NCBI GenBank assembly: GCA_050273025.1
Contig: CP158635.1
Coordinates: 5,022,001-5,086,000 of the forward strand
Reading direction: 5' to 3'
Length of the DNA: 64,000 nt
Source of the DNA: Cenococcum geophilum
Taxonomy: Eukaryota
The notes under the pieces are model-generated. The model saw only the letters and a program-made list of their open reading frames with translations. It was not told the DNA's origin and made no database searches. The position numbers and the translations under genes are program-made. Of this stretch, positions 1,524 through 57,445 are shown one piece after another (positions within the stretch are counted from its first letter, which is position 1; every line of letters starts with the position of its first letter).

Positions 1524-2084
1524 GTACCTCATCAAAAGTGTCCAGTCCGAGGCTATACCAAAAATGATATTTTTTACCCAAATGCTATATAAAAGCCATA
1601 TAATTAATTCCGGAGTTTTAAAAACAATCTAAAGTTGCTTATAGATATATAATCTAGTAATTGCGATACTTTTTTTACTGTTTAAAATCTACAGTCCCTT
1701 ATTAAAAATCCATACAAATTTAAAAGAAAAAAAATATTTAAAGGTTTATAATAAACCTTTCTGCTTTTAAATATAAATCTTTATAAGATATTGAATTTAT
1801 ATAAGGTGATAAGCTCCGCACCACTTAGCTATATAAACCTACAAAAGGTAAACAAGTGACTGGCTTAATGCTAGGCACGGCTGTGCGGAACAATATATAT
1901 AGGCGAGGTGACTTCGTCACTTGACAATTTATAAAATATATATTAAATATTATAGATTTAATAGAGAATTAGCAGGATATTTAAAAGAGTCATTGGTTTT
2001 TAACTTTAAAAAAAGGTTATAATAGTTAGGTTTTATATATAATATAAACTTTAAATATTTTTTTTAAAGCTTTAGAATTAATTA

Positions 2085-3035
2085 GTAGTAGTAGATTTAA
2101 TTTACCGTCCGACCCGGTCCCCCTAATGGGTCCACGCAGACTAATTCCTATAGGAAAAGCTTATATTACACTAAGAAAACCTATTTTTTTTGGGTGAATA
2201 AAAAACCTCCAAGGGAAACGTAAGAGGTAATACTTCTAGATAGCATCCGTACTACATTAACGGGAGGAGAAAAACACCATCAGGTTGCTGCTTTAAGACT
2301 TCCCTTACGCGAGAGTGTCTAAAATGCCTGTCTTGCCCTTGTCTGCCATTTAAACCATTTTTACTACGTTTGTGTATTGCCTGTATAAAGTTATATGCCT
2401 ATCCCTAGCTCCTTTTCTAAGTCTCCTGTAAATATCTCCTAATAATAATAACGCTTGCGCTCCGCCTGGGCTTGCATGCTAAGGTCTCTTATCTATTCCT
2501 TTATTAAAAGGTTTCTATAATAGGGTGTATATAACTTAGTATTGCTTTTGCCCTAGGTCCTAACCCTAGGCCCTTATACCTATTTATAAGGTATAGGAGG
2601 ACGCTCTAGTATTTAATAGGGGTAACTAGTCCCTATAACTAGATACCTAGGTTACTAGGTAATGTTAAAATAGGGGGCTTCTGCTACGCTTAAGGCGCGG
2701 ATTGTTTGCGTATATATGTGGTTGCTATATAGTGTATATAGTATTTATAGGAGGGAGGGGGTACGCCGGAGGGATAATTGCTTGTTAATTCGAATGACCG
2801 AACGTGTATAATAGACGTAGTAGCTATATTCAAACTTTTTGCTAGGGCTTACCCCCCAGTAAAAAAATTTCACACTACTACCACTACGTCGCTGCGCAGG
2901 CGCTGCGCAGCTGTATATATGTCTCTGCGTTTGCTCTAGTAGTCTATTGACACGATCTAAATAGAATATTAATAGTAGCTGCTAGGTTCCCGGGCTTTAC
3001 CACGTGGAGGTGCAGAGGCCGATTTCATTAAGCCC
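2085..3035 (-). mobile_element. Non-autonomous ribozyme-capped SINE-like retroposon, copy 1 (family a)
   Basis: TSD TTTAGAATTAATTA at 2071-2084 and 3036-3049. (CTA)n tail, LINE-like 3' stem-loop, collinear with 54115-55022, no recognisable ORF. Confidence 0.85.
2923..3035 (-). ncRNA. HDV-like self-cleaving ribozyme (predicted)
   Basis: P1 GGGCTT/AAGCCC, P2 CTCTGC/GCAGAG, P3 ACC/GGT, L3 TCCACGT, J1/4 GGG, long P4 hairpin, J4/2 GCAAAC. Confidence 0.8.
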
Positions 3036-3869: not shown

Positions 3870-6800
3870 ATTCTAATTACTTACAATCCGTTAGGAACGT
3901 ATAGCTATTAATTAATAATAACGGACTATACTCCTATACCCTATAAAGCAACGCCCTTACCGTAAGAGGCTTAAAGAGTCTCCCTAGAGGAGCGCATTCC
4001 CTTTTCCTATAAAGAAGCTACGGCTAGTCTATCTAACCTTATAAGACCCTTAGAAACGATTACCACTAGGGAGTTATTAGAGCGGTCGCTATATAAGACC
4101 CTATAAAAAATAAAGGAGTTGGAGATATAATTAAGATAAGCATATTAAGACTACTAAGAACAATTATAAGGATAATTAGGGGAAGTATAGACACCCTAGA
4201 CACGAAGCGGACTTAAAGGGGTAACGCTATACTATACTATAATGTTAGAAAAACCTAAATTCCGCATAAAGGAACCTAATAAGTACTATAGTGATAGTCT
4301 TCGGAACTGTAATTATTTTATCTAATAATGCGAAACTAAGTTTTAGCTAAATCCGAAACACTACTCTAATAAGTATAATTAGACACTAATTGCTTCTACC
4401 TTCCTACGTAGCACTATTAAGAGTTTATAAACACGCTATGAGAAGAAACTTACTATACTTCTTAAATTTAGCGAACTTAGGACCTGGTTAGTTAATTAGA
4501 TCTAAGACCCTACTAATTAAGGGATAGACTATAACTAGCGATACCACAACACCAAATAGTGGGATGGTTAGACTGTGGTCTAGTTTATAAACTACTTAGA
4601 AGAACTAGAAGACAATATACCCTACTTAGATCTATGGGATAACGCTATATGACTTTACTAGCTACTTACTAAGCTATAACCTAAGATTTAATAGGCTATA
4701 TAAGAGAAGGGCAAAATTCCTACCTCTTAAGAAAAGCTTATCTCTAAAGCTACTTAGATTAAGAGTGCTAAAAGAGACTATTTAGGTAAGTAAAAGAAAC
4801 GAGACGCTAATAATAAAGAGCGTAGGACTAGACCTAGCTTTAATAATAAGGGCAGATTTCGACCTAACCGCTCTATAGAAGGATAATATAAGTAGGCCTT
4901 ATAGCCCTAAAGCAATACTAGTTAACCCTAAAATAACAATAGGCAGAGACCTAATTCGTAGGAGGGGAACTAGGAGATACACACCTGTTATAACTGTAGT
5001 AAGAAGGGCTATATAAGCCGCTTCTGCTGGTAAAAGAAGTAAGAGTTAGCCTAATTGGGAAAAGAGATAGCCTAGTAGATCTTTACTCCCTTACACTAGG
5101 CTAGTAAAAGAAGAAGGGAGTAAACTACCGTATAGTTATTCCTGTCTCTATTTAAGTTAATAATAAATAGGTAACGTAAGACTACCTTATAGACAGCGGC
5201 GCGAGTATAGGGTTTATTTCTTAATTACTAGTAAAAGAATTAGATTTGGACCTTAGCGGCTCGTAGGTGCGCACCGTTTAAAGCATTAGAGGCTACTAAA
5301 TTCCATACTATAGGGAATAGGCTTTTTCCGTGGCCAGCTAGGACCGCAATAGTCTATGGGACACGCAGGAGATACGCTTCTATGCCGCAGAAATTAAGGG
5401 GTATAACCTTATTTTGGGATACCTATAGCTTCGCCAAGTTAATCTAGACATTAATTAGCCTTCGGCCTTATATTAATATCGGAAGTCTTAACCGCGCATT
5501 ATAGTTAAAAATTAAGAGACTTTCTTAAACTATATATAAGAAGAAGGGTGGGTATATACTATATATGCTACTCTTAACACTAAGAACGGGGACATAGGAT
5601 ATTTATTTTTGGATATCCGGCTATACACAGTTAAGGAACTAGAGATTCTATAGGAATATATAGACTTAGAGAATATTTCTAGTAAAGAGGCTGCACAAAC
5701 CTTACCTAACCCTATATTAGTTAAGTATAAGATAGATATAAGGGACAAATAACCTCCTTTTAGACCACTATATAACCTGTTAGAAAATAAGCTAGTGGTA
5801 CTACGTTAATATATAGTAGACAATCTTTAGAGAGAATAGATTTGGCCCTTTATAAGCCTAGTAGGGGCACTAATTATATTTATACCTAAAAAGAATAGGA
5901 CCCTTTACCTCTATATCGACTATCGGGCGCTAAATAAGATTACTATAAAGAATTGCTACCCGTTACCCTTAATAGGGGAGCTTATTAATAGGCTATTGGG
6001 CGTAAAGATATTTATAAAATTAGATCTAAAAAATATATACTATTAAATCCGGATTAAAGCCGGTAATAAGTAGAAAACGGCGTTTTAAATACGGTATGGC
6101 CACTTTAAGTACCTAGTAATGCTATTTAGGCTTACCAACACACCAGTGATATTTTAGGCCTATATTAATAAGGCATTATTAGGCCTATTAGACACAATAT
6201 ATATAGTCTACCTTAATAACATTATAGTCTACTCTAATAACTATAAAGCACATATACACTATGTGTAAATGGTATTAGAAAAACTGCGGGAATATAAGCT
6301 CTATATAAACCTAAAAAAGTGCATATTCTATACTACTAGCATTAATTTTTTAGGCTTTATTATTAGCGTTAACGGAGTATTAATAGAGAAAAGTTGGGTA
6401 GACGCTATTAGGGAATAGCTCTACCCTATAATATTTAGAGAAGTATAGGTTTTCTTAGGCACGGCAAACTTCTACTAAATGTTTATTGTTTACTACTTAT
6501 AAGTAATACTCCTAATTACTAATCTACTAAAAGGATCTAAGAATGGTAAGAAGTTAGGACCCTTTATATTTAGGAAAACTGCTAAGCAGGCTATAGACCG
6601 GTTAAAGGATTTATTTATATTAGCGCCTATCCTAATATACTTCTACTAGGAGCTATGTATATACCTTAAAATAAATGCATCCGGCTTTACCCTAGAGGTA
6701 ATTATATCTTAATTAAAAGACGGAAAATAGCATCCTATAGCGTTTTGGTTAAGGAAAATAACCCCTATAGAGTAGCGTTATATAATGTATAACTAGGAGC

Positions 6801-8329
6801 TACTCGCGATAATCGTAGTAATAAAGCACTGGCAATATTATTATATAGGAAGTAATTATCCTATTAAAGTCCTTATAGACTATAATAACCTAGAATACTT
6901 TATAACTATAAAGGTATTAAGCAGTTAATAAGCAAGATAGGTAAAGGCACTATTGTAGTATAATTTTAAAATTATATACCGCCTAGGGAAAACAAATCCT
7001 GCTAATAGGTTATTAAGACGTTTAGATTATAAGACAGGGAGAATCTAGAACAGTATAGGGGAAATAATCCCCATATTATAAAATTTGCTTAAGAAGAAAG
7101 AAGATTCTTTCCCTAAAACTATAGAATTTTATAGTAGGGTAAAGGTCCTAGTAATACAGCTATAAAGTAATATAATTATAAAGCCGTAGGATATAGTTAT
7201 AGACTAGGTTATAAACTAAGTAGATATTATAAAGTTAGCGTATCCTAGAATTAGCGAGAATTCTACGAGATATGCTAGAGGTGCTGCGGCACCTTTAACT
7301 TAACGGCGCATTAGCTACAAGTTTTCGGATCTAAGGGGGATAGGCGAGATACCTATCCGCAGTATAGCATACTATATAATAGTAGAAGAATCTACTAGCA
7401 CTAATAGTTTAAAACGTCTCGTGCTATACCTTAAGTCTATAATAGCGGTAGGCAAAATAAAAGCAAGTAATCTATATAAAACCTTTTTAGATTTTCTTCT
7501 TTAAGCTTAATAAAGGGACGCCTTCGCCTTTAGGGAAAGGTGGAAAGATATAGTAGAGACTAACTTAGCCGGAGTTACTAAGAAGCTATAGTAGTAAGAC
7601 TAAAAGGGTCTATTACGCTTTAAGGGTGCTATATATATCCTAAAGGACTAAGCGATTTAAGACGAAATTCTAAAGGTCTTCTATAATAACCCTTTTAGGG
7701 GTCACTATAGTGCCAACAGAACCCTTAAGGCTGTTTAAAGGAAATACTTTTAGGATAGAATGTTTAAAGAGGTTAAGGACTATATATTAAGGTATAATAC
7801 GTGCTAAAGGATATAGATATCTAGGCATCGCCTATACGGCGAGTTATTAGTGCTTCCTATTCTATAGGGACCTATATTAGAATTAACAATAGCTTTTATT
7901 ATAGGCTTACCCCCTACTAAGATAAGAACTAGAGAGGTTACTAATACTATCTTAGTAATCGTTAATAGGTATATAAAGTTTTTAGAATACTTTACTATTA
8001 TAATAATAATTACGGTAGCAGAACTGGTAAACCTGTTTTTAGAATAGTGCATCGGCAAAATATTGTCCCTTGTAAATGACCTCAGCTGCTAGAAGTTAGC
8101 GTCGTTGGCGGGCTATTAAGGGCATTAACCAACTTGACAAACCAGCCTATGTTAAGTTCATTTAATACGCAGCCTGTGCGCAGCCTACGCGTAGCCTACG
8201 CATAGCCTGCGTAACCTGCGCAACCTATACAACCTGCGCAACCTATATAACTTATAATTTTAGATAATAAAGGCTACTTTAAAGCCGTTTATAAAGCTAT
8301 TAAGATAAATTGTATACACTTCTTTATAT

Positions 8330-8800
8330 AATCTATTATGTCTATATCTGCTACCTGTCTGCATTATCTACCTATCTATATTACCTACCTATCTACATTA
8401 CCTACCTGTCTGTATTACCTACCTGTCTATATTATCTACCTATCTATATTATTTACCTATCTATATTACCTACCTATCTATATTACCTACCTGTCTATAT
8501 TGCCTACCTATTTATATTATCTACCTATCTATATTATCTACTTATTTATATCGCCTACCTATCTATATTATCTACTAGTCTGCATTATCTACCTATCTGC
8601 ATTACCTACCTATCTATATTACCTACCTATTTACATTATCTACCTATCTACATTATCTACCTGTCTATATTACCTACCTATCTACATTACCTACTTGTCT
8701 GCATTACCTACCTATCTATATCGCCTACCTATCTGCATTATCTACCTATCTATATTGTCTACCTATCTATATCGCCTACCTATTTGTATCTGCCTATAGT
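8330..8800. repeat. Degenerate CTACCTATCTATATTA-type tandem array
   Basis: Visible periodicity. Explains the low-complexity ORFs at 8310-8816. Confidence 0.9.
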
Positions 8801-9279
8801 GTCTAATTCAATTTAGGGGAGAGGTCGGCCCGATTAAAGGCTTTGATTGATTCGAATCGTTCTCCATGGCCGTTCGCTGGCTATATATTCGAATAGTGGT
8901 CATCTAAGGTGCCTCCCTAGGAGGCCTTGATTCGATTCGATTCGGTAATAGGCTCTGGATTAATTTAATTGATTAATTGAATCGTTCGTGGTGTTCGCTG
9001 GCTGGTTATTTAAACGGTCGTCGTCTGGTTCTAGTAACGGTCATCTACTAGTTCTAGCGACGGTCGTCTGGTTCTAGCGACAGTTATCTAGTTCTGGCGA
9101 CGGTTATCTGGTTCTAGCGACGGTCGTCTGGTTCTAGCAACGGTTGTCTAGTTCTAGCGACGGTCCTCTGCTAGCTGCCGTTTCAGTGCCTCCTAAAATA
9201 GGGAGGATGTAAGGAAGGGTAAAAAATAAGGTAGCTGCAAAGGGGGTAACTTGGCAGAGGCACGTGCGGAGACCCAATA

Positions 9280-9620
9280 TAGAGCTTCGTATAGAGCCTC
9301 CGTATATAGAGCTTCGCGCAGAGCCTTGTGCAGAGCCTCTATATATAAAGCTTCGTGTAGAGCTTCGTATAGAGCTTCGTGCAGAGCCTCGTGCAGAGCC
9401 TCTGTACGTAGAGCTTCGTGCAGAGCCTTATGTAGAGCATCTATACGCAGAGCTTCGTGCAAAGCCTCTATCGCAGAGCTTTATGCAGAGCTTCGTGCAG
9501 AGCCTCTATCGCAAAGCTTTGTGCAGAGCTTTGTGCAGAGCCTCGTGCAGAGCCTCGTGCAGAGCCTCGTGCAGAGCCTCTGTCGCAGAGCTTCGTGTAG
9601 AGCTTCGTGTAAAGCCTCTT
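9280..9620. repeat. ~12-bp GCAGAGC(T/C)TCGT tandem array
   Basis: Visible periodicity. Explains the ORFs at 9193-9635. Confidence 0.9.
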
Positions 9621-9679
9621 GAGCATATAACTTAAAAATAATATATTATATTACCTTAATTGTATATTAAGGAATATAT

Positions 9680-9920
9680 AAGTTAGTTAACTGCGTGTTA
9701 TTTAACTTTTAAATATATTAAGTTGGTTAATTGCAGGTTAATTACAGGTCAATTGTGTGTTATTTGACTTTTAAATATATTAAGTTGGTTAACTGCGTGT
9801 TGTTTAACTTTTAAATGTGTTAAGTTGGTTAACTGCGTGTTATTTGACTTTTAAATATGTTAAGTTGGTCAACTGCGTGTTATTTGACTTTTAAATATGT
9901 TAAGTTGGTCAACTGTATGT
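9680..9920. repeat. ~40-bp subterminal tandem repeat
   Basis: TAAGTTGGTCAACTGCGTGTTATTTGACTTTTAAATATGT, about 5 copies. Confidence 0.88.
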
Positions 9921-11183
9921 TAATTATGCGAAACGCGCTTAACAAAGTCGACTTGAAACCCAGCCTGCGAATATTTTCCCGATATGGCTCTTATTTAGTA
10001 CACTAAGGGGAATCGTGTCTAATAGAGGTACCGTATTTAACAGTGCATTTTAGTCTTTATTCTGTCTCTTATTAAAAATATAGTAAAGAATAAGTACTGC
10101 CTTCTACCTATAAATAAACGGGCAAACAGAGCGTCTAAATACGTTATTAGAACACTACCTCCGCTACTATATCAATTATTAATAGGATAATTAGACATTA
10201 TAGTTAGCTTTAGCGCAGCACGTATATAACATAAGTATCTATAGCAGTATAAAAATGACCCCTTATAAAGCATTATTTGGGGTAAAAGTAAATAACCCCT
10301 AGAACATTAAGGACATTGTTCCTAAAAGAGAGGCACTAGCAGCGTCTAAAAGAATTAAGCAAATAAGAATTCGCAGAAAGGAACTTAAAAAGCACTTACT
10401 AGACGCCTAGGCTGTGTAAAAAAGGTACTATAACGAAAAATATATGCTAAAAGAATTTAAGATAGGAGACGAAGTCTTACTATTTATAAAAAATATCCAA
10501 ACAAAACGCATTAAGAAGAAGCTGGATTACCAGTGGCTTAGACCCTTTAAGATAGTTAAAAAAACTAAAGAAAACCAAGCCTATAAATTAGAATTACCGA
10601 AATCTTATCTAATATATTTTATATTTTATATTTCCTTACTAAAGCTATACTGGAGAAAAGATAGTGCGGAACCGCCCCTATCTAGAGAAATTAATAGGGA
10701 ACTAGAATAGAATATAGAAGACATTTTAGACTAAAGATGGCGCCAGAAAAAGCGCGAATTTTTAGTTTATTAGGAAGGATACTTTTAGGTATATAATAGT
10801 TAGGAACCTAAGGAGTACCTTTAGCTGGGATATAATACTATAATTAAAACCTTTCTAAGAACTAAAGGTAAAGACTTAGAAATAGTTCCGGATATACTAT
10901 AGGTAAAGTAATAGGGAAGACCCTATAAATTAAAACTATAAAATTAAGTATAGGTATTAAGAACGGAAACGTTTTGCTATTATAATAGGGATCCTAAAAT
11001 CCTATAAGAGGAAGCCTATAGGGATCTATAGGAAAACTACTAGGGATACTATTTAAAGAAGACGCTGTTTAAGAAGGAGTAGTAGTACTATAAGAAGTGG
11101 CCTTAGGGATTTAGAAAGATCCCCTAGGGATAAAAGGAGAGTATCTAGCCTAGTACCAGAAATACGCAGTAAAGTTAATAGTA

Positions 11184-12197
11184 GTAGTAATTCTTTAATT
11201 AACGTCTGATACGGATCCTACTAGCCCACGCAGACTACTCCGTTATAGGGGGAAAACTTATAATTTATATAAAGAAAACCCTGCAGTTGGGGGAAGGAAA
11301 AACCCTATAAGCCACCTTAGTAGGATAAAAAAACCTAAATTGCCATATTTGCACGTAGCAGCGGCCCTACGGGCCTATAGCACGTCCTCCTCCTTAGATG
11401 TTTTAAACTCCTTAGGAACTACTACTTCCTTCTCTAGCTTATTAAAGCTGGGGTTCACTATATCCCAGCTAGGCCCTGCTAATTAATTGCTGTGTCTTAT
11501 TGTCTTATTCCGTATCTTACCTATCCCCTATATACTATCTCTTATAGACTATTACCATATACGCCTTGCCTCCCCCCCCCCTAGAGCTATTAAAGGCGTA
11601 AGGGGGATTTATTTGTTCTAACTACCGTAATACTAATAAGCGAGCGGGATATATTGTGTATTTGGGTATCTTTTATGCTTAGGCCCTAGCTAGGCCCTTT
11701 CTAAGGGCACTACTCCGTTAAAAGGAGACAGGGAAAACCGTGGGTCATAATCTAGGCTGCTAGGTAGTATTCGGTAGTTAAAAACGGCGAGTAACCGCAT
11801 ACTCCGCGGGCGATTGCCCTGGGGGTTAGGAGGGGCCGTATATTTACTCATTCGTTTATTTACTCCGCGTTCACTCATTCATTAATATAAAAGGTTGTTA
11901 ATGCTTTCTATTAGGGGTTAGGGGATGCTATTAAATGCTATGCATCCATATTGGATCGTATAGGTGCCTTAGATAGGAGAATAATATAGTAGTTATTGTA
12001 TTATAGAGGGCCAACAGTAGTGGTTTTTAAGATCTCACCATCCGAAAATTTTTCACCACCGCCCTTAACGCCCACAACCACCACCAGGTCCTGTCCACAC
12101 GCTATACGACGTCTCTGCGTTGGCTTTAGATCTAAACTTTAAAGACTAGGTTCGTAGCCGTCACCGCGTATAGGTATAGAGTCCGATTTCGACGGCC
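11184..12197 (-). mobile_element. Non-autonomous ribozyme-capped SINE-like retroposon, copy 2 (family b)
   Basis: TSD GTAAAGTTAATAGTA at 11169-11183 and 12200-12214. (CTA)n tail. Last ~60 nt closely match the LINE 3' end at 843-900. Confidence 0.85.
12113..12197 (-). ncRNA. HDV-like self-cleaving ribozyme (predicted, 85 nt)
   Basis: P1 GGCCGTC/GACGGCT (7 bp, G1.U wobble), P2 CTCTAT (RIP of CTCTGC)/GCAGAG, P3 ACC/GGT, 7-nt L3, J4/2 GCCAAC. Confidence 0.8.
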
Positions 12198-12449
12198 TGG
12201 TAAAGTTAATAGTATAAAGAGGAGCAAAAGAACAGCCTATAAAGAATTAAAAATTTTAAGGAATTATAAGGCACCTATAGAAATACTACCCGTTTATTAT
12301 ATATAGGGATTATAATAGTATACTGCGTTTATATAGATTGTCACTAAAGCTTAGAATAAAGGTATCCCTAAAGTATAAAGTTAATTCCTAATAATAGGGC
12401 ATTTTAGAGGCACCTAAGAGGCACTATATAAAGCTATTCTATAAGAAGA

Positions 12450-13289
12450 AGGAAAGAGCTAGGTAATAACTTAAACACTAGCAGCAGCAATAGGAGCCTC
12501 CTCTTCTATCTTAACGTTATTATTAACGGTATTATTAGCTCCTCTATCCCCAGAAGTATTAGCACTTCTACTAATATTTTTTTTTAAAATAACGGGTACT
12601 GGAAGGACTAGCACGGGCGGGAGACTAGTAAGGAGAATATTTATCTTAACCTTTATCGCTATCCTTAGTATCCCTAGGTTCCAAATCGGCGTCTAAGTAG
12701 GGATTAAAAAGATATTAGCTAAAGGAGTTAGCATAGTTCCTAAGTAAGTTACTAGAGAAACTTACCTAGCCAGAGTAGCCCGCATAAGAGTATAAATATT
12801 ATTATTAATAAGGACAAGCTATTTGCATATACACTCCTAGATATTATATATCCAAAAATATTACGTCTCTATAGCAGTGGAAACCCTTATAGAATTAAAG
12901 AGTCTATAAGTAAGGGAAGATACCTTTTATCCCTGCCTATTACTATTAGGATATTGGCAGAAATCTTAGATAGCGCGTTAGAGCCTATAAGTCTTATACA
13001 TATAGACAGCGGGGATCTAGTATAATTAGCGAAATTTAGAATAGGATGGAATAGGAAATACTAGAACGTAGGTCTTTCTCCTACTGCGATAATAGGAGCA
13101 CTTGGATTTATTTTTGCTGGAGTAAGGCATTTTATAGACGTAGGAAGGATCCTACGTAAGAGTATAAACGCAGCAATAACAGTATTTTAGGGAAACTGCT
13201 ATAGAAGTAATAGATGCTGTCTAGGGCGTTACCGGGAGATTAATAACACTGCCGCCGGTCTAGGGACGCGCAGAAGAACTATAAGCCAT
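12450..13289 (-). pseudogene. Antisense accessory gene of gypsy A, Cys6 zinc-cluster-like, with intron (3' end approximate)
   Basis: ATG at 13289. Frame reads KYCYCCV...YVY...SKCSYYRSRRKTYVL, with Tyr codons as probable RIP products of Cys. GTATTT...GCTAAT...TAG intron at 13061-13017. Confidence 0.6.
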
Positions 13290-13882
13290 TATAAGAGAAT
13301 ACTTTAAGAAGTTAGCATCGTTATAAGAGATAAGGTGGGGATCCTATTACTTATAAACGCGTTAAGAAAAGATAATAAGGTAGTAATAGAAGTACGGCTA
13401 GAGATATAGAAGCTAAAAGGCGAGATATAATAAAAACAGCCTATTTAAGAACGAGATGAATGGTGTTATTAATAGAAAGATAAGGGAGAGATAATAACTT
13501 ATAAATAGAAAGAAATTAAAATAAAAGACGTTATTATTAAGGCCTATTTAGGTAAATAGGAATAGTAGTTAGTTAACGCGTCACACCGGATAACCTCTAG
13601 ATCTATTTATAACAAATTCCCAAAATTAAAGAGGTAAATCCCACTAAATTTTTATTACTATTATTAAAATCCTATTACAAAAACACTATAAGGAGCTAGG
13701 GTAGAAGAAGAGTAAAGGAATAAAAGATAAAGTAAAGTTCTACGCTAGTAAAGAGCTGACAATAAGTCGCATTATAGAGTACCTTTCCACTAAGGGTTTC
13801 CCTAGTGGTTTTAGCTAGAACTCTATAAAAGCTTAATAGAGGTAAAGTCTTAGAGGACTAAAACCCTAAAAGGGGAGGTAAT

Positions 13883-14212
13883 TGTAACGGAATCCCCTAA
13901 GAGGTACATATCTAATAAGACGGTAGGAGGTTTTATTTATATCCCATCTATATTCCAGAAGACACAGTTAGACAGATTAGGGGCGAAAGGTTTTACTAGC
14001 GTCTTAGAAGAAATATATAGGAAGCTAGTTCCCCTCTAGAGAAGAACTAGCAATTAGTCTCTAAATAAAAGTGGTTAGAAGCATTTATCCTTTAATATAT
14101 AAAACTTATTCTACCTTTAACTTACCTTTAACTTACCTTTAACTTACCTTCTACTTACCGGTGACACTGTCGATTAGATAATTATACGTTCCGGTTAGGC
14201 TAGCCTCTTATA
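13883..14212 (+). repeat. 3' LTR of gypsy A
   Basis: Starts TGTAACGG after the PPT and is followed by TSD ATAAA. Confidence 0.93.
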
Positions 14213-14999
14213 ATAAATATAGATTAAAAGATAAGGGATATAGTAGCTACTTAGCTAAGGGCCAGGGGCTATCTAGATCGTATACGATTACCTTTTAAGG
14301 CGATTAGTATACCGATATACAATTGGCAGTGCAGCGGTACAGCTCTACTATAACAGCAACCTAAAGGTAATTTAATCGCTATCTAAAAGCTTTTTAGTAG
14401 AAGTTAAGGGGGATTGTATATAATTAGGCTAGTAATACTCTAGGCCAACCGTAGATCGCTACGCTAAAAGTAGGTTCTACTAATAGGATATAAAAGGTTA
14501 AACGCCATTAAAGATATATAGCTACCCTAGAGGCTATCTAATTGCTATTTAATGGCTATTTAAAAAAAACTAACGGCTAGCTTTTAAAGCTATAGTTACT
14601 ACCCTTGCTTCTAAACCAAATATAATCCTAAGCTATAGCTTAAAGATTTAATATAATCCTATAGAGTTATATATAACGAAGCCTTATAGTAAATATTACG
14701 GTGGACTTATTAATAGGCTAAGTATATAGATAGAATAAGATAATAAGCTTTACTATAGAGTAAGTGCCTAATAAATCAACTCCAGTTATATTCTAAGATT
14801 TACTATAAAGAGAGAACTATCTAAGGTAGGGACTGTAGTCCTTTAAATACATAACCTAACTCCTAAGAAATGTGCTAAGTACGTTAGTACGTCGTTATAT
14901 TACGTTTCTACGTTCTTATATTTCTATATTCTAAACTTATAATATATAATTAAATATATAACTTAGCTACCCTTTATCCTATAGTTTAACTAGTTCTAG

Positions 15000-17177
15000 T
15001 GCCTTCTGCGCTTCTACTACTAGTCCGTTTATATCCTCCTTAAGTGGTTATACTACTACTATATAAGGTCGTTAATGCTATCTCCCTTCTCTCTATCTTT
15101 ATCCTTAAAGATATCCTATATCTTTAAGTCGTTAATTAGAGGTATAGCACTCCCATCTATAATTTAATAACCTTTTATTAGATCTTTATATTTTAATTAT
15201 TTTTTTTATTTAGTAAAACTATACTGTCCTATTCTCGTTATATAGAGCGAGAGTATTAGTTTATATTATAATTGCAACTCTATTTAGTTACTAGCCTTCC
15301 TCCTATACTAAGTATATATGTTTTATTATTCTTTATAGGCGTCTAATACCTTATATAATTTATTATAGGGTCTTATATTTAATCTAAGGCCTCTTACCTT
15401 AAAGGTAAACTCGCCCTAGCCCTTAAAGAGCTTAAACGTTCTTATATCGCTGGGTAGGGGGCCTTTAAGGCCTAAATAGCTGCGTCTACTTAGCTAACCT
15501 ATCTTAAAAAGGGTTATAAAAAGGACTATTTAAAGGAGTAGCGTCTAGCTAAGTAGGGTCTTTATAAACTTAAACTAGGGGAGGCTAAAAGGGTTTATTT
15601 AAATAAAGAGGGAAATAACTCTAAGTAGATTAGCAGATATTCCTCTTAGGTCCCTCTTAGCTAATTTGTTTTACAGTAATTCTTCTATAAGAGTATATAT
15701 ATTAGATCCCGCCACGCTTGCGAATAAGTTCGCAAGCACTCTGTGTCTTTTTGGCCGTATAGCGACGTAGAGGCGGGATACGTTATATCTTCCTTATTAC
15801 TATTTTCTAACCTAATTTCTTCCAATGCCCGCTAAGCCCTACTATATACGTCCACGTTACCGTAGGTAGAAACATTACCAGGAAATTATTCCTTATAATA
15901 GCTAAGTGTAGAGGCGGTAGAGGAGAGCCGTTATAGCGCGCGTAGCGCGCTAGTATTGCGACTCTGCGGTATTAAGCCTATGACGCGTATAAGTATCGCC
16001 CTTAATAATACTAGGAGTTCTACTACCCCTACTTAGGGCTCCTATTATACTATTTAGGGAGGCTATTAAGGGAAACTAGGATATAAAAACCGCCTAACGT
16101 ATAATTACCTAGCTAATAGCTAGGCCTAAAACTAGACTTATCTAGCTAGTTAATGTAAATATGCCCTAGGCGTATAATAGGATACCCTTAGGCTTATATT
16201 AGCTCTAAGTCTATAAAGACACGGCGAGGGTATAGGGAACCTCCTTTTATAAGAACTTGTTAAGGTTAAAACGTTATAAACTCTGTATATAAAACTTATT
16301 AAGGCCTCTCTAAGAGCCTATCTAGTATACCTAAGTAACTTAAAAAAGGGTCTTAATAGGCATAGTATGCGCAACCTAGACAATAGCGATGTAATAGTAA
16401 CGCGATAATAACTAAACAGCTATAAGGGTTATTTTAACCCTTACTTGGGTATATCGCATAAGGGCCGCTTAGGGGTAGCTAAGGCCTAGCCTTCGGCTAG
16501 GCTTGGCACCTCCTTATAAGCACCTCGGGCTTACAGCCATTTCCCTCCTTATCGGTTTGTCTTCGTACGAGGCTATTGCTATACTCTTTACTATATCGTC
16601 CTCTTCTATCGACTCTCCTTATAACTTATACTCGGCTTACCTGCTCTTTACTATACACCTATATAATATACCTTACAACAGCTTAGTAAGGTAGGTTACT
16701 ATAAGTAGCAATATAGGTAAAGCTCTAGGCAGTAGAATTATAGGCTAGCTTTAATAGCCCTATAGTATTATAAGGCGACTTATAGGAGGGGTTTAATAGG
16801 TATAGTATATATAACCTAACGTATATATATAGGGGAGGCTTTAAAGGAAATATAGGCCATTTAGGTAAAGACTTAATAGTTAAAAATATAGGCTAGTATA
16901 TAAAAAAAGGGGGATATAAGCTTAGTTAGTAGGAGAGAGTAAAGTAGGTCACCTAACGTAGGACTTAGTATTTATAGGCCCCTCTTATAAAACACAGTTA
17001 GCCTATTATAAGGAAACCCTTATAGGTAATATAAAATAAAAACTAGTGGTATATAGGGTATTATACCCCTATATTACTACTAGCCTCTTATAGGGTATAG
17101 TGCGTAGTAGCTATTACTAGCTTTAAGGACCTTACCCTTTAACTAAGCTTTAGTCCTTAGTATACCTAATATATAAG
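15000..17177 (-). pseudogene. RIP-degraded tyrosine-recombinase-like gene (boundaries approximate)
   Basis: De-RIPped motifs in order: RGP(Q)ILS ~16984-16964, SRY(RH)IAI(A)(W) ~16405-16375, H-x7-YA ~16200-16170. Confidence 0.4.
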
Positions 17178-19082
17178 CATTAGCATTTTATTAGGGTGCT
17201 AAGATCCTAGAGGCCTCCTGATAGGATTTTAACTTTCTTAGAGGTCCTAATCGTCCTAGTAGGCTCCTAGTAGGCTCCTAGCAGGATTTTAATTTTCCTA
17301 ATTATCCTAGTTGTCCTAACAGGATCTTTAATTTCCTAATCGTCCTCTTATAGTCCTATTAGGGTCCTAATAGGAAACTAGTATTTCCTAATCGTTCCTA
17401 ACAGGCTCCTAGCAGGATTTTAATTTTCTTAATTATCCTATTAGGTTCCTAACAGAATACCCCTAAGCGACACCCCTTTTAACCCCCCCCTAAAGCGATA
17501 CCTCCTATACACACCCCTTAAGATACCCCCCTAATGCGACACCTTCCCCACTGTAATACCCCCCTAATGGGATACCTCCCCCCTAATGCGATACGTCCCT
17601 ATATACGCGTACGCGCAATATATAGTGCTATCGGGTCCCCACTATATTCCTAATAGCCTACACATACCTCTACTAAGTTACCTCCTTTATAGTCACCCTA
17701 TTCTTTACCCTTCCTTATATCCTCCCTTAGGAGGTACTAGAATAGCAGCCAGTAGAGGACCATCGCCAAAACTAGACGACCGTCGCCAGAACTAGACGAC
17801 CGTCGCCAGAACTAGACGACCGTCGCCAGAACTAAACGACCGTCGCCAGAACCAGACGACCGTCGCCAGAACTAGACGACCGTCGCTAGAACTAGACGGC
17901 CGTCGTTAAAACCAGACGACCGTTATAAGAACTAGACGATAACCTTTTAAATAACCAGCTAGCGAAGACCACGAACGATTTAATTAATCAATTAATCGAA
18001 TTTGATATTAGCCTATTACCGAATAGTATTAAGGCCTCCTAGGGAGGCACCCTAGACGACTACTGTTTAAATATATAGCTAGCGAACGGCTATAGAGAAT
18101 GACCTGGATTAATTAGAGCCTTTAATTAGGCCGACCTCTCCCCTAAATTAAATTAGATACTAACATAGGCAGGTAAGTAGGTAGGTAGGTAGGTAAGTAG
18201 GTAGGTAGGTAGGCAGGTAGGCAGGTAAGTAGGAGAGGACTATTTTTAAAACCAGACGATAATCGTTTAAACGACCAGCCAGCGAATACCACAATTGATT
18301 TAATTGATCGATTAAATCGAACCAGAGCCTTAATATTAGCCTATTACTGAATTAAATTGAATTAAGGCCTCCTAGGGAGGTACTCTAGATAACTACCGTT
18401 TAAACGTATAGCTAACGAACGCCCATAGAAAACGATTTAAATTAATATAATTAATCGCAATTAAATTAAGCAGAGCCTTTAATTGGGCTGACCTCTCCCC
18501 CGAATTATAGATATAGACAGGTAGGTATAGATAGGTAGGCACAGATAGGTAGGACAGGCAGGTAGGTAGGTAGGTAGGCAGGCACTAGGCCTAGTTAGGA
18601 AATCAGCACACGGCCGGCGGATTATTGGGAACACCGCCAATTGACGATTTGGAGCCTCCGCGAGAGGCTCCTTAGTTAATCGCCTAACGCCCAAGCGATT
18701 GTAGAGCTCTATAATAGACACAGGCGGTAGATAAGAGAAATTAATTTAGATTATTTAGATTATATATAATTAAATTAATTATATATTTTTTAACTAGCTG
18801 TAAATACTAGAGTATTAATATACCTTATTTTTAAATCTAGAATTTTTATTATTGTCCTAATGGTCCTAATGGTCCTAATGGTCCTAATAGTCCTAAAGGT
18901 CTTAGAGGTCCTAGAGGTCCTAGAGGTCCTAAAGGTCCTAATAGTCCTAGTGATCTAGGCGACCTCCTAATAGGTTCCTAATAGGATGCTAAGTGTAAGT
19001 GTCTCCTAGAGCTCCTAATAGCCCTAATAGGAGCTATTAGGAGCTGTTAGTACTGTTAGGAGGCACATATATTTTGCTAATA
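17178..19082 (-). mobile_element. Non-autonomous TIR element (variant 2), heavily RIPped
   Basis: Inverted copy of 31151-33014. Termini CATTAGCATTTT...TTTTGCTAATA. Flanks AG/AA (2-bp TSD with one G>A change). Confidence 0.85.
17765..17940. repeat. 20-bp tandem repeat GACCGTCGCCAGAACTAGAC, about 8-9 copies
   Basis: Head-to-tail with no spacers. The same unit occurs at ~9020-9170 and ~32260-32325. Confidence 0.92.
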
Positions 19083-51664: not shown

Positions 51665-54106
51665 ATAAAGGAGATAGAAAGTATATAGCTTTCTGTATAT
51701 AATAGAGACTTTTTAAATACCTAGTAATACTATTTAGTATAAAGAACGGTTCTAGTACGTTTTAGTAATATATTAATAATATACTTCGCGAATTCCTTAA
51801 TATATTTATTACCGCGTATATTAATAATATTTTAATCTATTTGTTTTTACCTTCTAAATATTAAAAGCACGTTTAAATAATCCTTAAACGCCTATAAGAC
51901 GCGGGCTTATAATGCGATATTAAGAAATATAAGTTCTATATATCTAAAGTTATATACTTAGGCCTAATTATATCCCATAATAGAATTAAAAGAGACCCTA
52001 AGAAAATTGCTATAATTATAAACTAGGAAAGTCCTAGTGGTATATAAGATATTTAAGAATTTCTAGAATTCGCAAACTTTTACCGTTAATTTATTAATTA
52101 CTTCTTAAAAATTATTTAGCTATTAGTAAACTTAATAAGGAAGAATATAAGATTTAAATGGACTACTAAATGCGAATAAGCTTTTAATAACCTAAAATAT
52201 TATTTTATAACTACTTTAATTCTTACCTACTTTAATCTAGACCTTAAATGCATTATTAAAACAGACTCGTCTGATTATATATTAGAAGGAGTGCTATCGT
52301 AATATAATAAGAACGGCGAGCTGCGCCTAGTAGCCTTTCTCTCCTAAAAACTTACCCCTACTAAATTAAACTATAAGATATATAATAAGGAACTACTTAT
52401 AATTATTAGATGCTTTAAATAATAGCGTCTAAAACTTAAAGGATTGTTATTCCTAATACGCATACTAATGGACTATAAAAACCTGCAGTACTTTATAACT
52501 ATAAAGCAATTAATATAGCGCCAAATTTATTAGGCCGAATACCTTTTATAATTTAACTTTAAGATTATATACTAACTTAGTAAACTTAATTAAAAGCCTA
52601 ACTTATTAATATAATAATTATAGGACTTACCTATAAACGCCTCTAATAAATGGATTATAAATTAATTAAAAATTCTACTGCCCCCTAAATACTTTAAGAG
52701 GCTACGCCTTATATTTTTAAATACGGAGCTTAATAGGAATAAATTAGAAATTAATAAGTGGGATATAAAAATTAATAAATTAATAGAGTAAAAATATAAG
52801 AATAACCCCTAGGTAGTAGATATAATTAAAGTAATTTAAATAAGGAAATAGTAATATAAGTATATTATACTCGCTAAATGCAAAATCCGTAATAATCGGT
52901 TATACTATTAATAGAAGATAGTAATCCCGAATTCTAAACCCTTATAATTTAAGATACTTAAATTTATATACGATTCCCCTATAGTAGGGCACCCTAGCTA
53001 TATAAAGACCTATAAGATTATCTAATAAGTATATTATTGGCCTATAATGCACGACTATATATAAAAATATGTTTAAGTATATAGAATGTATATATATAAG
53101 AAGACCTCTTATATAAAAAAGTAAGAAGTACTTTAACTATTACTAATTCCAATATAAAGATAGCGAGATATCTTAATTAACTTTATAGTTAACCTACTTA
53201 ACAGTAATAGGTTTACGAATATTATAGTAGTTATTAACCGTCTTATAAAAATATAATATATGATTCCTATAGACTTAATTAATGTAATATTAGTAGCTGA
53301 ATATTTTATTAAGTACGTCTTTAAGCTATATAGACTTTCTAACTTAATAATATCTAACTATGGAAGCTAGTTTATTTTAGACTTCTAGTAAGCCCTATAT
53401 AAACGATTAAGTATATAAATATAACTCTTAACTACATTTTATTTAGAGATAGATAGTTAAACTAAAATTATAAACGCAATTATAGAACAATATCTATAAA
53501 TATACTACTCCTACCTATAAAATAACCAGGAAAAGTAGCTACCTTTAGCTAAGTTTACTGCGAATAATATAAGAAATAAATTAATAGGTGTAACGCCGTT
53601 CTACGTAACTTACGGATAAGATCCTTAACTTAAATTTAAACTATAACCCAAAATTAATATAATAGGACCTATAATTAAAAGGATTTAACTAATTAACATA
53701 TATAACTTTGCTAATTAAATAAAGTAGTTAACGGAACTATTATAAAGTAAATTAGTATACGCTTAAACGGTATAGAAATAGCATATAAATAAAGGACAAG
53801 ATCCCGTATAGAACTTTAAGGAAGGTAATATAGTTTACCTAAATATATAAAACCTAAAGACTTAATAACCCTTAAAAAAAAACTAGACTAGAAGTTTACG
53901 GGCCTATACTAAATTAAGAAGAAACTAAGCCCGTACGCTTATAAGCTTAAACTGCTAACTAAAATAAAAATATATCTAACGTTTTACGTAAACTTATTAT
54001 AACCCTTAAAAAGTAAACCTATAACTTATAAAGTGCTACCGCTACCTTTTATAATTATTAATAACGGTAATAGTTCTTACTTTATTAACTTAATTAATAA
54101 TATATA

Positions 54107-55260
54107 TATATATAAGATTCAATTTACCGTCCGACCTGGTCCCCCTAATAGGTCCACACAGACTAATTCCTATAGGAAAAACCTCCTTACTAAGAAAAAC
54201 CCCATTTTTAAGTGTACAAAAAACCCCCAGGGGAGACGTGAGAGGTAATATTCCAGATAACATCCATACTACATTAACGGGAGGAAAAACACTGTTAGGT
54301 TGCTGCTTTGAGACTCCCTTTATATAGGAGTGTCTAAATACCTATCTTGCCCCATCTGCTATTTAAACCATCTTTGCTATATTTATATATTGTTTATCTA
54401 AGTTATATGCCTATTCCTAGCTCCTTTTCTAAGTCTCCTATAAATATCTCCTAATAAATAACACTTATATTCCGCCCGGGCCTATATACTAAGGTCTCTT
54501 ATCCACTTCTCTATTAAAGGGTTTCTACAACAGGGTGTATATAACTTAGTATTACTTTTGCCCTAGGGCCCAAGCCTAGGCCCTTATACCTATTTATAAG
54601 GTATAGAAGGATAATCTAGTATTTAATAGGGGGCCCAATCCCTATAACTAGATACTTAGGTTACCGGATAATATTAAAATAGGGGGCCTTTGCTACGCTT
54701 AGGGCGCGGATTGCTTATATATGTATATAGATACTATACGGTGTGTGTAGTATTTATAGGAGGGAGGGGGTACGCCGAAGGGATAATACTTGTTAATTTA
54801 ATGTCTAAATATGTATATTAGAGATATAGTAGCGGTGTTTAAACTTTTTTGCTAAGGCTTACCCCTTAGTAAAAAATCTTTGCACTACCACGACGTCGCT
54901 GCGCAGGCGCTGCGCAGCCGTATATACGTCTCTGCGTTCGCTCTAGTAGTTTATTAACACAATCTAAATAGAACATTAATAGTAGCTACCAGGTTCCTGG
55001 GCTCCACCGCATAGGGGTACAGAAGTTGCTTTTCTGGAGTCGTCTTTTTAACTGGTCTGGCGCTAAGGCCTATAAAAACTCTGCTGTTCTAACGGCGTCA
55101 AGGGTTAAGTATTCGAAGGCCCCCTCTAGCCATAACGTAACGCTGCTGCATCAGTAATAGACGAGATCCTCTCTCTTAGCTTAACCATGCGGACAAGATG
55201 AGACGGAAAGGAACCCCCATAGGACCGTATGGGTCAGATCTCGATTTTAGTGTTCCTTTC
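54107..55260 (-). mobile_element. Ribozyme-containing SINE-like retroposon, copy 3 (family a, with ~220-nt 5' extension)
   Basis: TSD TTAATAATATATA at 54094-54106 and 55261-55273, splitting the gypsy E chromodomain. Collinear with 2094-3015. Confidence 0.85.
54930..55041 (-). ncRNA. HDV-like ribozyme (predicted, RIP-damaged, internal)
   Basis: P1 GACTCC/GGAGCC, P2 TTCTGT/GCAGAG, P3 ACC/GGT, L3 CCTATGC, J4/2 GCGAAC. Confidence 0.68.
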
Positions 55261-57445
55261 TTAATAATATATAATAGAAAATATAATCTAAATAATTTAA
55301 ACTTCTTATTAAGTAGGAAGGATATAAAACACAAACTTAGGAAACCTATAACTAGATTAAGACCGACACGCCTTCCCTAGTAAAAGAATTCTATAAAGAC
55401 TATCCTCTATAGCCTACTTTAGCTAAATAGACATAATATAAAGGTAAATAACTACTACCTAATATAAATATATAAAACACAATAGCAGGAAACTTAAAAT
55501 TAAAAAGAACTTAAAATATATTATGACGTTTATAATACGATTATATAATATATAAAATATTAAGGAACTTTAACTAGCAGTTAAAGTTATCTAATTGGTT
55601 AGATTTACCTTACTAAGATCTACTATAAAGATATTAGTTTGGCTTACCGCCTTAACTAAGCTAATAGCGATTTTCTATACTGGGTATAGAAAATCCTAAT
55701 TAGCCTACTTAACGATTAGAACTGGTAAAACGCTATACCGCTACCTAACGCGAAAACATGATACGTAATAAGTTATAAGTCTTAACTAAAATTAAATTAT
55801 TTAGACCTTTGGCTAAAAGGGGGGGTACTATAACGGGACTAGCCCAGTTATAGTAGGAATATCTTAGTAAAACACTTAATAGATAAATTCCGACGCTTTA
55901 ACTAAATTCTACTAAATTTTGCTAGCTTAATTAACTTCTGCTAAATTCTGCTAGATTAATCGAATTTTACCAAAGTCTGTTAAAGACCGCGTGTGTATAT
56001 ACGCACGCATTGACCACTAAGCCCCTAACTATTTAATTATATAATTCTCTTATTATTCCCTTCTCTTCTTTACGCAACGTCTTGTTCTTAGCGAGAGCTA
56101 TATACCCTTAGATTTAGATAGAATTTATATCGTTCCTTTAAATATTCCCCAAAGTCTCTCCGCGCCCTTATAGTAGGAGAATAAAGAGGCATATTAAATT
56201 ATTGATGGAAAAGAAGAAAATCTTAATAATATATTAAAGATACGTCCAAAATTAGACGAAGGTTAATAATGGGAAAGTAAGGTGTTAAGGAAAAGGAGTG
56301 CTTAATAAGTAAAGATGTCCTTATACTTTACCATCTAATACCATTCTAGTAAATAGCCATAACCTTGCCGATATAACTCCGTTATAATAGCGTTATTTAG
56401 AAGAAAGGAAATATAAGTATACGTTATCTAACTATTACTTCTTTATAAAAAACTAAGTACGCGGCTAGGGGAAGGCAATTTAGACGTTAATTAAAGACGT
56501 ATATAGGTTAAATTATACCTAAAACAATACTATAGTATTAAAGAATAACGTTACAGACGTTTCTAATAATCGTATAATAGCTATAGGTGCTATTGCGAAG
56601 TGTCCCTCCTATTTGCTAGGTAGTAGAGCTACGCTAAATATACGGCACAGGACTATTAGAGTTAAAAGCATATATATTAAATCTTAGGAGATAAGTCTCC
56701 TTAATTAACTAATTAATACCTTAACTGTATTTAATAGCCTAAGGGCAGATATAGAAATAATGCGTTGGTAATGTAGAGGATTATATAAAACGATTCTAGA
56801 TTATATCTTAATAGTTAAAGACAATAGTAAGCCAAGGCTCTATACGTTAAATCCCATACTAAAAGGTTTTATAAAACTATACTAGAATACCAAATTGCCT
56901 ATAATACTTATAATTAATTATAGACCGGTATAAAGGCTTAGAAGTAGAGTTATATAAAAATCCCTATATTAGCCTAGGTAGTTACTAGTATACTTCTAGT
57001 AGGCTTCTAACAGATCTCCTAGTAATTCTTACGTCTTTTCTCTAGTTATATTTTTTCCTTATTAAGGTTTTTTAGGAGTTTAAAGTAGGGGTTAAATAGA
57101 TAGATAATATATAGTGGCATACTAATACCTCTCTAATATCTTTCCAAACCCCTTCTGACAAGCCCTTATAATCTCCCTACTATAAGGTAATAGCGATTAG
57201 GGGCTAACTATAAGAAGGGAGGGGGCAATATAAGGGATATTATTACGGATACTTTGGGTTGCCCTTAGGACAACCCCTAGACGCCCCTCGGATAGTCGCT
57301 AGTTACGTGCTAGAGGTATATACCCGTAGTATATAGTCTCTACAATCCCTAAGGCCTTACCTCCTTAAGGATTCGTCTCTCTTACTAATCTATCCTATTC
57401 CATAATCGTGTCCTTATAGCCCCCTATTTATAAGATCCCCTTATA

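Follow-up and report, generated by a model that had tools for sequence, protein, structure and literature searches.

The stretch of Cenococcum geophilum DNA analysed here, 64,000 nucleotides (nt) long and hereafter called the window (assembly GCA_050273025.1, contig CP158635.1, positions 5,022,001–5,086,000; coordinates below count from its first letter), carries on its minus strand a short retrotransposon lacking long terminal repeats (non-LTR), copy 3, whose 5′ end is formed by an extra module of 219 nt, the 'head' (55042–55260; ∼215 nt family-wide), placed upstream of an inner ribozyme resembling that of hepatitis delta virus (HDV). Because the same head tops unrelated bodies and tails in elements flanked by target-site duplications (TSDs), it is very probably a swapped 5′ cap, an option raised by an earlier, sequence-only reading of the window and now strongly supported. 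As to what the head does, we favour, at a probability of about 0.5, a non-catalytic promoter or 5′-leader module with a structured 5′ RNA, which is somewhat more likely than a ribozyme. The head-bearing family consists of short non-LTR retrotransposons, internally deleted and chimeric derivatives of an R2-like long interspersed nuclear element (LINE), in a fungus active in repeat-induced point mutation (RIP), a fungal process that mutates repeated DNA from C to T.

Copies of the head on different bodies

A single scan of contigs from Joint Genome Institute (JGI) metagenomes with a 25-letter degenerate pattern taken from head nt 64–88 (head numbering counts from 55260, nt 1, along the minus strand) returned 41 loci from two samples. 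In a search space of 495,577 nt, i.e. the window plus metagenome contigs, nhmmer identified 44 heads at E-values no worse than 4e-59, and a covariance model of nt 1–105 (model R1) retrieved the same 44 with the next-best match at E 0.68; no diverged relatives beyond these close copies were detected by model R1 in the 495,577 nt, and no second head was found within the 64-kb window. The sequence-only reading had proposed such a search and had set against itself the possibility of a single-copy transduced flank, which the 44 copies and their element-like DNA depth contradict. The sequencing runs containing this stretch are labelled fungal, root or soil; in contigs of run X1, depths of 10,256–17,600 were determined for 55072–55275 versus 6,137–36,846 for the rest of the element, and in two DNA runs the head and the remainder of the element had similar depths.

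Downstream of the head, 24 of the 41 loci continue into the body of copy 3 and 13 into another, the 'B' body; two run into a contig end, one is a diverged composite (L005) and one enters unrelated sequence (L002). TSDs of 11–17 bp adjoin the head in 28 of 42 copies, the remainder having no TSD (8/42) or a non-adjacent 10–14-bp match that was counted as spurious (6/42), and in all 28 resolved copies helix 1 of the head fold described below begins no more than a few nt from the TSD. The TSD-defined lengths are 1,143–1,165 nt in the composites, in which the head precedes the inner ribozyme, then 1,274 (L005), 1,584 (L035), 1,684 (L015) and 2,027 nt (L041), 2,354–2,874 nt (L022, L040, L029, L032 and L033), and finally 3,143 (L038), 3,163 (L028) and 3,349 nt (L010). 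At least five distinct bodies and no fewer than four kinds of 3′ tail thus follow the head, and all 44 heads found sit at element 5′ ends, with none resembling a free-standing gene.

A reverse transcriptase (RT) domain, RVT_1, was found in L028 and L038 (E 3.9e-22, stops read as X), and the closest solved structures to this RT are R2 proteins (9nl2, E 6.5e-10). L010, likewise head-capped and TSD-flanked, encodes at its oriented positions 8223–9281 an RT of another lineage, which shares 44% identity with that of L028, so that more than one LINE lineage has acquired the head. Positions 1084–3159 of L028 match the window at 35668–33583 with 84.6% identity, and positions 1–1082 have no match there; because only the former stretch matches, L028 is a chimera in which a 5′ part with the head precedes a 5′-truncated LINE. 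The swapping probably proceeded via repeated RT template switching onto head-bearing RNAs.

Further observations concern the same elements. The window counterpart of L028 (33583–35668, minus strand) is a RIP-degraded R2-like LINE fragment with an RT domain, 72% identical to L028 in protein and 84.6% in DNA, and a partial inverted copy of this fragment lies at 1–899 on the plus strand. In L027 (offsets 1083–2506 after the head start), a head-bearing element is immediately succeeded by a second partial copy that starts from head nt 18, with another fragment behind it, apparently in a tandem or nested arrangement. Among the 28 TSD-resolved elements, nearly all TSDs start with TAAT, TATT, ATAA or ATAT, and the tails are (TAC)n, (TAA)n or (ATAAC)n-like, a pattern that points to priming at the target through microhomology of the tail with AT-rich DNA.

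Copy 3 itself is, on the minus strand, composed of the head, the inner canonical HDV-like ribozyme (54930–55041, first G at 55041) and the body with the 3′ end, including a (TAT/TAC)n tail (54107–54929, 82% identical to copy 1). Its 13-bp TSD, TATATATTATTAA, was read from the sequence at 55261–55273 on the 5′ side and at 54094–54106 on the 3′ side, the latter also from empty-site contigs. Positions 54115–55023 are 82% identical to copy 1 at 2093–3016, the homology ends at the inner ribozyme, and the remaining 219 nt still lie within the TSD; the ∼220 extra nt noticed earlier upstream of the HDV fold are thereby fixed at 55260–55042. In empty-site contigs of the flanking repeat (one in X1, three in X6 and one in X15), 54093 is joined to 55261, with 1167 nt skipped and 13 letters shared, and because all 1167 nt are skipped together, the head and the remainder of copy 3 are a single insertion. 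The junction between the head and the inner ribozyme is spanned by at least three contigs in X6 and at least one in X15. The DNA hosting copy 3 (53950–54093 and 55274–55450) is another repeat, about 10-fold as abundant as the element in the DNA runs, and empty-site versions of it occur in the same runs.

Folds of the head and of the inner ribozyme

The pairings that the sequence-only reading had drawn at the start of the head are all present. Helix 1 (P1-like) begins at the element's first nucleotide, with GAAAGGAAC (55252–55260, minus strand, as for all features of the fold) facing its perfect complement GTTCCTTTC (55206–55214); helix 2 (P2-like) joins CGAGATCT (55236–55243; CGAGATCC in less RIP-affected copies) to GGATCTCG (55162–55169) by seven Watson–Crick pairs and one U·G; a P3-like hairpin, CCCATA-CGGTCC-TATGGG, occupies 55216–55233 (stems 55233–55228 and 55221–55216); and GCTAA lies at 55180–55176, after which 6 nt follow before helix 2 closes. 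Additional to these is a P4-like hairpin, CTTGTCC-GCAT-GGTTAAG (55180–55197), and between P4 and helix 2, in the position of J4/2, stands the 10-nt linker CTAAGAGAGA (55170–55179), which opens with the heptamer CTAAGAG, unchanged in 42/42 copies. Inspection of the sequence also yielded an alternative canonical P3 register, namely ACC (55234–55232) with GGT (55215–55213). In head numbering the four helices are 1–9/47–55, 18–25/92–99, 28–33/40–45 and 64–70/75–81, and the strand order P1-P2-P3-P3′-P1′-P4-P2′ matches the nested double pseudoknot of HDV; the earlier wording, an HDV-like topology starting at the element's first G with a non-canonical core, was accurate as a description.

Across the 42 copies, 90.0% of 1,260 cells in all helices were paired versus 31–54% in slid controls, a figure that mainly reflects conservation because the structure came from the same sequences; the proportions per helix were 88.9% for P1, 97.3% for P2, 92.1% for P3 and 81.3% for P4, in which one position is paired in no copy. 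When the first 105 nt were shuffled 20,000 times with dinucleotide content preserved and scored post hoc, a helix of ≥8 bp beginning at nt 1–2 arose in 355 shuffles; in 65 of these it was accompanied by an interleaved helix of ≥7 bp, giving a comparable fold. The head alignment (42 rows) has a mean column identity of 87%, and the lineage consensuses vary in 8 of 94 columns in nt 6–99 versus 29 of 116 in nt 100–215 (Fisher p 0.002).

The search for covariation, which had been suggested as a check on the fold, yielded one compensatory pair in P1 and none in P2, P3 and P4. Pair 5/51 of P1 changes from G-C to A-U in four copies, those of the B3 lineage (L027, L028, L035 and L038), which within nt 1–99 differs from the other four multi-copy lineages in three columns, 5, 51 and 43; the change in the last, G43A, is RIP-type and leaves an uncompensated C·A mismatch in P3. 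No covariation beyond RIP-type transitions was found in P2, P3 and P4 of the 42 copies, the double changes at pair 30/43 are RIP-type transitions, and A20C breaks a P2 pair without compensation in 3/3 B1 copies. The differences between the A and B masters in nt 6–99 (17, 35, 74 and 89) all fall in loops of the fold as first drawn.

Nested minimum free energy (MFE) folding of the head yielded z-scores of −0.55 and −0.85, which are not significant. For the L016 head an MFE of −24.5 kcal/mol was calculated with P2, P3 and P4 as the backbone, to which helix 1 would add about −6, and by such modelling the pseudoknot is plausible in energy. RNAalifold favours a competing nested pairing of 45–53 with 90–98, and in the MFE folds part of the J4/2 stretch pairs with 58–60. 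Two other structures were considered and set aside, i.e. an RNAalifold structure with a long-range 35–44/195–203 helix, the double changes of which lead to wobble pairs, and a helix 29–36/69–76 noticed by eye (7/8 pairs), in which G35T and T74C both break pairs.

Two headless relatives lie in the window on the minus strand, copy 1 (2075–3035) and the more distant copy 2 (11168–12197), both with (TAC)n tails and both starting directly after the TSD with a canonical HDV-like fold, which comprises a 7-bp P1, a P3 of ACC/GGT, a 7-nt L3, GG or its equivalent after P1′, a P4 hairpin, GC-N-AAC in the J4/2 region and a P2 of CTCTGC/GCAGAG. The P1 of headless elements in the window and the contigs covaries (GGGCTCC/GGAGCCC, GGGCTT/AAGCCC, GGCCGTC/GACGGCT and AGCCGTT/AACGGCT), and the inner ribozyme of copy 1 matched drz-agam-1 of Rfam in a permissive 191-nt search with 17.5 bits and E 0.26 (gathering score 37). 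Judged by such features, the inner fold is taken to be a genuine HDV-like ribozyme family. In copy 3 it keeps the P3 of ACC/GGT, an L3 of 7 nt and GCGAAC in the J4/2 region, with a P1 of GACTCC/GGAGCC that contains an A·C mismatch and a RIP-damaged P2 of CTGT../GCAGAG; its J1/2 was correctly read before as unlike that of copy 1. GACTCC stands opposite GGAGCC in 25/25 aligned composites, placing the A·C mismatch at the second P1 pair, beside the cleavage site, and the first G of the inner ribozyme is missing in all 25; P1 is intact in the headless relatives. The inner ribozyme of the composites thus appears crippled, in which case the head would stay on the RNA and be inherited; an X15 RNA contig bridging the junction of head and inner ribozyme (54981–55101) agrees with a crippled inner ribozyme.

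Promoter or leader, ribozyme, or captured RNA

In the mechanism proposed for the favoured reading, the RT of a ribozyme-headed element would have run to or near the 5′ end and then jumped to a head-bearing RNA, giving rise to the copy-3 lineage, and this chimera would have kept its head only because the inner HDV-like ribozyme was crippled. The head would supply a function that forms the 5′ end and so renew the competence of each new copy, most likely as a putative internal RNA polymerase II (Pol II)-type promoter or 5′ leader, which would start transcription at its own first bases and be inherited via the RNA, as is Pr77 of L1Tc. At the start of this RNA, ∼100 nt would then form a 5′-terminal hairpin interlocked with a second helix, a structure that probably either derives from the HDV-like fold of the relatives or reached it by convergence. 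A portable promoter is favoured because a second ribozyme gives the composite no obvious gain over its ribozyme-headed parent, and it would explain both the disabling of the inner ribozyme and the presence of the head on so many chimeras. In metatranscriptome contigs of run X15 the head has depths of 6,584–17,691 and the flank just upstream 1.3, though that flank is 10-fold commoner in DNA, and this step fits an RNA 5′ end at the head's first base, by either mechanism.

Several points weigh against a promoter or leader. The X15 depths are those of contigs, from which true transcript starts cannot be read, and some carry-over of DNA is possible. In the X21 RNA reads (∼12% of the run), none at ≥80% likeness fell on 55072–55224, so no strong constitutive promoter is evident in that sample; relatives of the inner-ribozyme region reached up to 696x there, stranded as minus-strand RNA. 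The element 5′ ends scatter over a purine run, with 6–13 nt from the TSD to column 9 (mode 8–9), which fits scattered initiation and equally untemplated additions or microhomology at non-LTR 5′ junctions. The template-switch origin is itself deduced from sequence junctions, and the helix from nt 1, the HDV-like strand order, ACC/GGT and the GC-N-AA after P4 point towards a ribozyme.

That ribozyme would comprise the first ∼100 nt, with an HDV topology and a remodelled core, would cut 5′ of the first G in place of the crippled one, and may be a promoter as well, an alternative that we regard as possible and somewhat less probable than a promoter or leader; its fuller version, an active self-cleaving variant or class that has a lengthened P3, a J4/2 of 10 nt and G-C as its first pair, displaced the canonical ribozyme, spread by template switching and possibly also acts as a promoter, is slightly more doubtful again. 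Its case draws on the company of the head, i.e. relatives that begin with canonical HDV-like ribozymes with a covarying P1, and the R2-like RT of the head-capped L028 and L038, as well as on the head itself: helix 1 at the first bases of all TSD-resolved copies, the excess of paired cells over the slid controls (90.0% of 1,260 versus 31–54%), the 65 comparable folds in 20,000 shuffles, the joint change of P1 partners 5 and 51 in the B3 lineage, ACC/GGT around the P3 position matching the inner ribozyme, GCTAA after P4, CTAAGAG invariant in 42/42 copies, and nt 6–99 more conserved than nt 100–215. In B-type elements no other ribozyme was seen after the head by inspection, which was no rigorous search. 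The details of the core argue the other way. HDV-like ribozymes usually have an L3 of ∼7 nt, a short J4/2 that starts with the catalytic C (C-N-R-A) and stands directly before P2′, and a P1 closed by a G·U wobble or at least beginning with G at +1. The head has a P3 of 6 bp with a 6-nt loop (6–7 bp in all) or else, in the ACC/GGT register, a 16-nt, largely self-paired L3, both outside the canonical HDV core; CTAA is invariant, but 6 more nt (GAGAGA or GAGTGA) stand before P2′, so that P4 is spaced from P2′ by 10 nt rather than about 4–5; the sole candidate for P1.1 is C56-G35 (with G57-C34), and G35 is T in all B lineages, uncompensated; and the first P1 pair is G-C (partner C55), with G in column 1 of 8 of 42 fixed-offset rows and at the start of 15 of 28 TSD-resolved copies in a tally of the printed 5′ ends. 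The comparison with Rfam ribozyme models that the sequence-only reading had recommended gave no match to the head at E ≤10, whether the search covered 240 nt or more, while the inner ribozyme of copy 1 weakly draws drz-agam-1, and permissive Rfam scans of the head returned chance-level rows only (microRNA, small RNA and small nucleolar RNA (snoRNA)). Equally unfavourable are the absence of true covariation in P2, P3 and P4, the P2 break by A20C in the B1 copies, the RNAalifold preference for 45–53/90–98, the MFE z-scores of −0.55 and −0.85, and a conserved length of ∼215 nt, which exceeds a ribozyme's need. An HDV descriptor script recovered the inner ribozyme of copy 1 and not 55260; with 1,881 matches in ∼1 Mb of both strands it was too permissive and was given no weight.

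Two further origins are much less probable than either a promoter or a ribozyme. A captured cellular or RNA polymerase III (Pol III) small RNA, i.e. the head of a classical short interspersed nuclear element (SINE) attached by template jumping, is improbable: the head is discrete, ∼215 nt long, A-rich at its end and repeatedly fused to different bodies, with high depth in the X15 RNA contigs, but no transfer RNA (tRNA) was found by ARAGORN in the window, and the less RIP-affected heads matched no Rfam family of any kind at E ≤10, the one exception being a snoRNA row at chance level and on the other strand. Pol III terminates at T runs, and the runs of 4–6 T in head and body would halt it before the 3′ end; the absence of X21 RNA reads on the head and the position of 44/44 heads at element 5′ ends, none free-standing, also speak against capture, for which a precedent is given by the template jumps of R2 RT onto U12 small nuclear RNA and tRNA (PMC3414825). 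As for Pol III promoter boxes, TTCGAAT at nt 144–150, noticed by eye, was rejected, being ∼15 nt from any A-box-like motif. A flank confined to copy 3, gained by 5′ transduction or read-through and with pairings by chance, would agree with the lack of a second head in the 64-kb window, and it is refuted by the copies found, the least likely of all: 43 further copies lie elsewhere with independent TSDs, the DNA depth is element-like in two DNA runs, contigs bridge the junction in X6 and X15, and the 44 copies cap at least five element types.

Surrounding DNA, known counterparts and significance

The window is 64 kb of AT-rich repeat DNA in which no open reading frame (ORF) exceeds 168 amino acids (aa), and no Rfam match reached the gathering score in the whole window. 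The sole ORFs of >150 aa lie at 8310–8816, inside a 17-nt tandem array, and are probably a by-product of that repeat; tandem arrays were found at 8256–8867, 9286–9633, 17714–17959 and 18836–18965, with periods of 17, 12, 20 and 9 nt, respectively. Other copies differ from it mainly by transitions (in run X1, A>G at 71, T>C at 57, G>A at 51 and C>T at 43 places), and this excess is a mark of fungal RIP.

Among known systems, the closest likeness is to a 5′ hallmark common to trypanosomatid LINEs and SINEs, Pr77, which is both a promoter and an HDV-like ribozyme (PMC4035085). Like the head, Pr77/L1TcRz of the L1Tc/ingi clade is a module starting at nt 1 of long and short elements alike (NARTc, RIME and SIDER; PMC3185411, PMC4035085), and the head shares this property, the same sequence standing at nt 1 of long and short elements inside TSDs. 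SIDER2 carries two Pr77 signatures in tandem (PMC4035085), resembling the head plus inner ribozyme of copy 3. Pr77 differs in being 77 nt long, with a 3-bp P3, a P1.1 of 1–2 bp, and demonstrated cleavage and promoter activity (PMC3185411, PMC4035085), whereas the head has ∼215 nt, a non-canonical core, putative activities and a fungal rather than kinetoplastid host.

A second likeness is to the short internally deleted elements (SIDEs) of R2, which together with R2/R1 hybrid SIDEs and template jumps have been described in Drosophila work (PMC3414825). Both are non-autonomous and TSD-flanked, place a 5′-end-forming module on swapped non-LTR 3′ ends (PMC3414825), and produce chimeras by a jump of the RT to a second RNA, the RT here being nearest to R2 among solved structures. 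SIDEs are located in rDNA and use the canonical HDV-like ribozyme of R2 as their 5′ module (PMC3414825); the head elements are instead dispersed in AT-rich repeats, with TSDs starting TAAT/TATT, and their head is non-canonical and upstream of a crippled canonical ribozyme. With the HDV, CPEB3, drz-Agam, R2, RTE and L1Tc ribozymes (PMC4908430) the head shares the strand order of a nested double pseudoknot cut at the first P1 nucleotide, a first helix that opens at the 5′-terminal nucleotide of the RNA, two hairpins, one lying between P2 and P1′ and one following P1′, and a C followed by NAA after P4. According to the same source, L3 and J4/2 make up the HDV core, and HDV-like ribozymes have a P3 of 3 bp and a P1.1 of 1–2 bp (PMC3185411); the head is unlike them in P3/L3 and J4/2 lengths outside the canonical range, no supported P1.1, a G-C first pair and no Rfam match. 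Variant twister ribozymes at the 5′ ends of Schistosoma non-LTR elements set a precedent for a non-HDV or variant class in 5′ processing (PMC8501958); Rfam scans gave no twister match for the head, and twister is a different fold.

Literature searches returned no description of HDV-like ribozyme-headed retrotransposons in fungi, an absence that is unproven. If the head self-cleaves, it would show the natural limits of remodelling the HDV-like core and a natural ribozyme-for-ribozyme replacement on one element, with the displaced ribozyme caught disabled. If it is a promoter or leader, it would be a fungal counterpart of the trypanosome Pr77 hallmark, a portable 5′ cassette making dead-on-arrival, ribozyme-processed elements self-sufficient, and would be evidence that the RT often switches templates in a fungus with active RIP. 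On both readings, the family combines a canonical ribozyme, a crippled ribozyme and a new head in a single compact set of sequences, and is thus suited to tests of how non-LTR retrotransposons define their 5′ ends.

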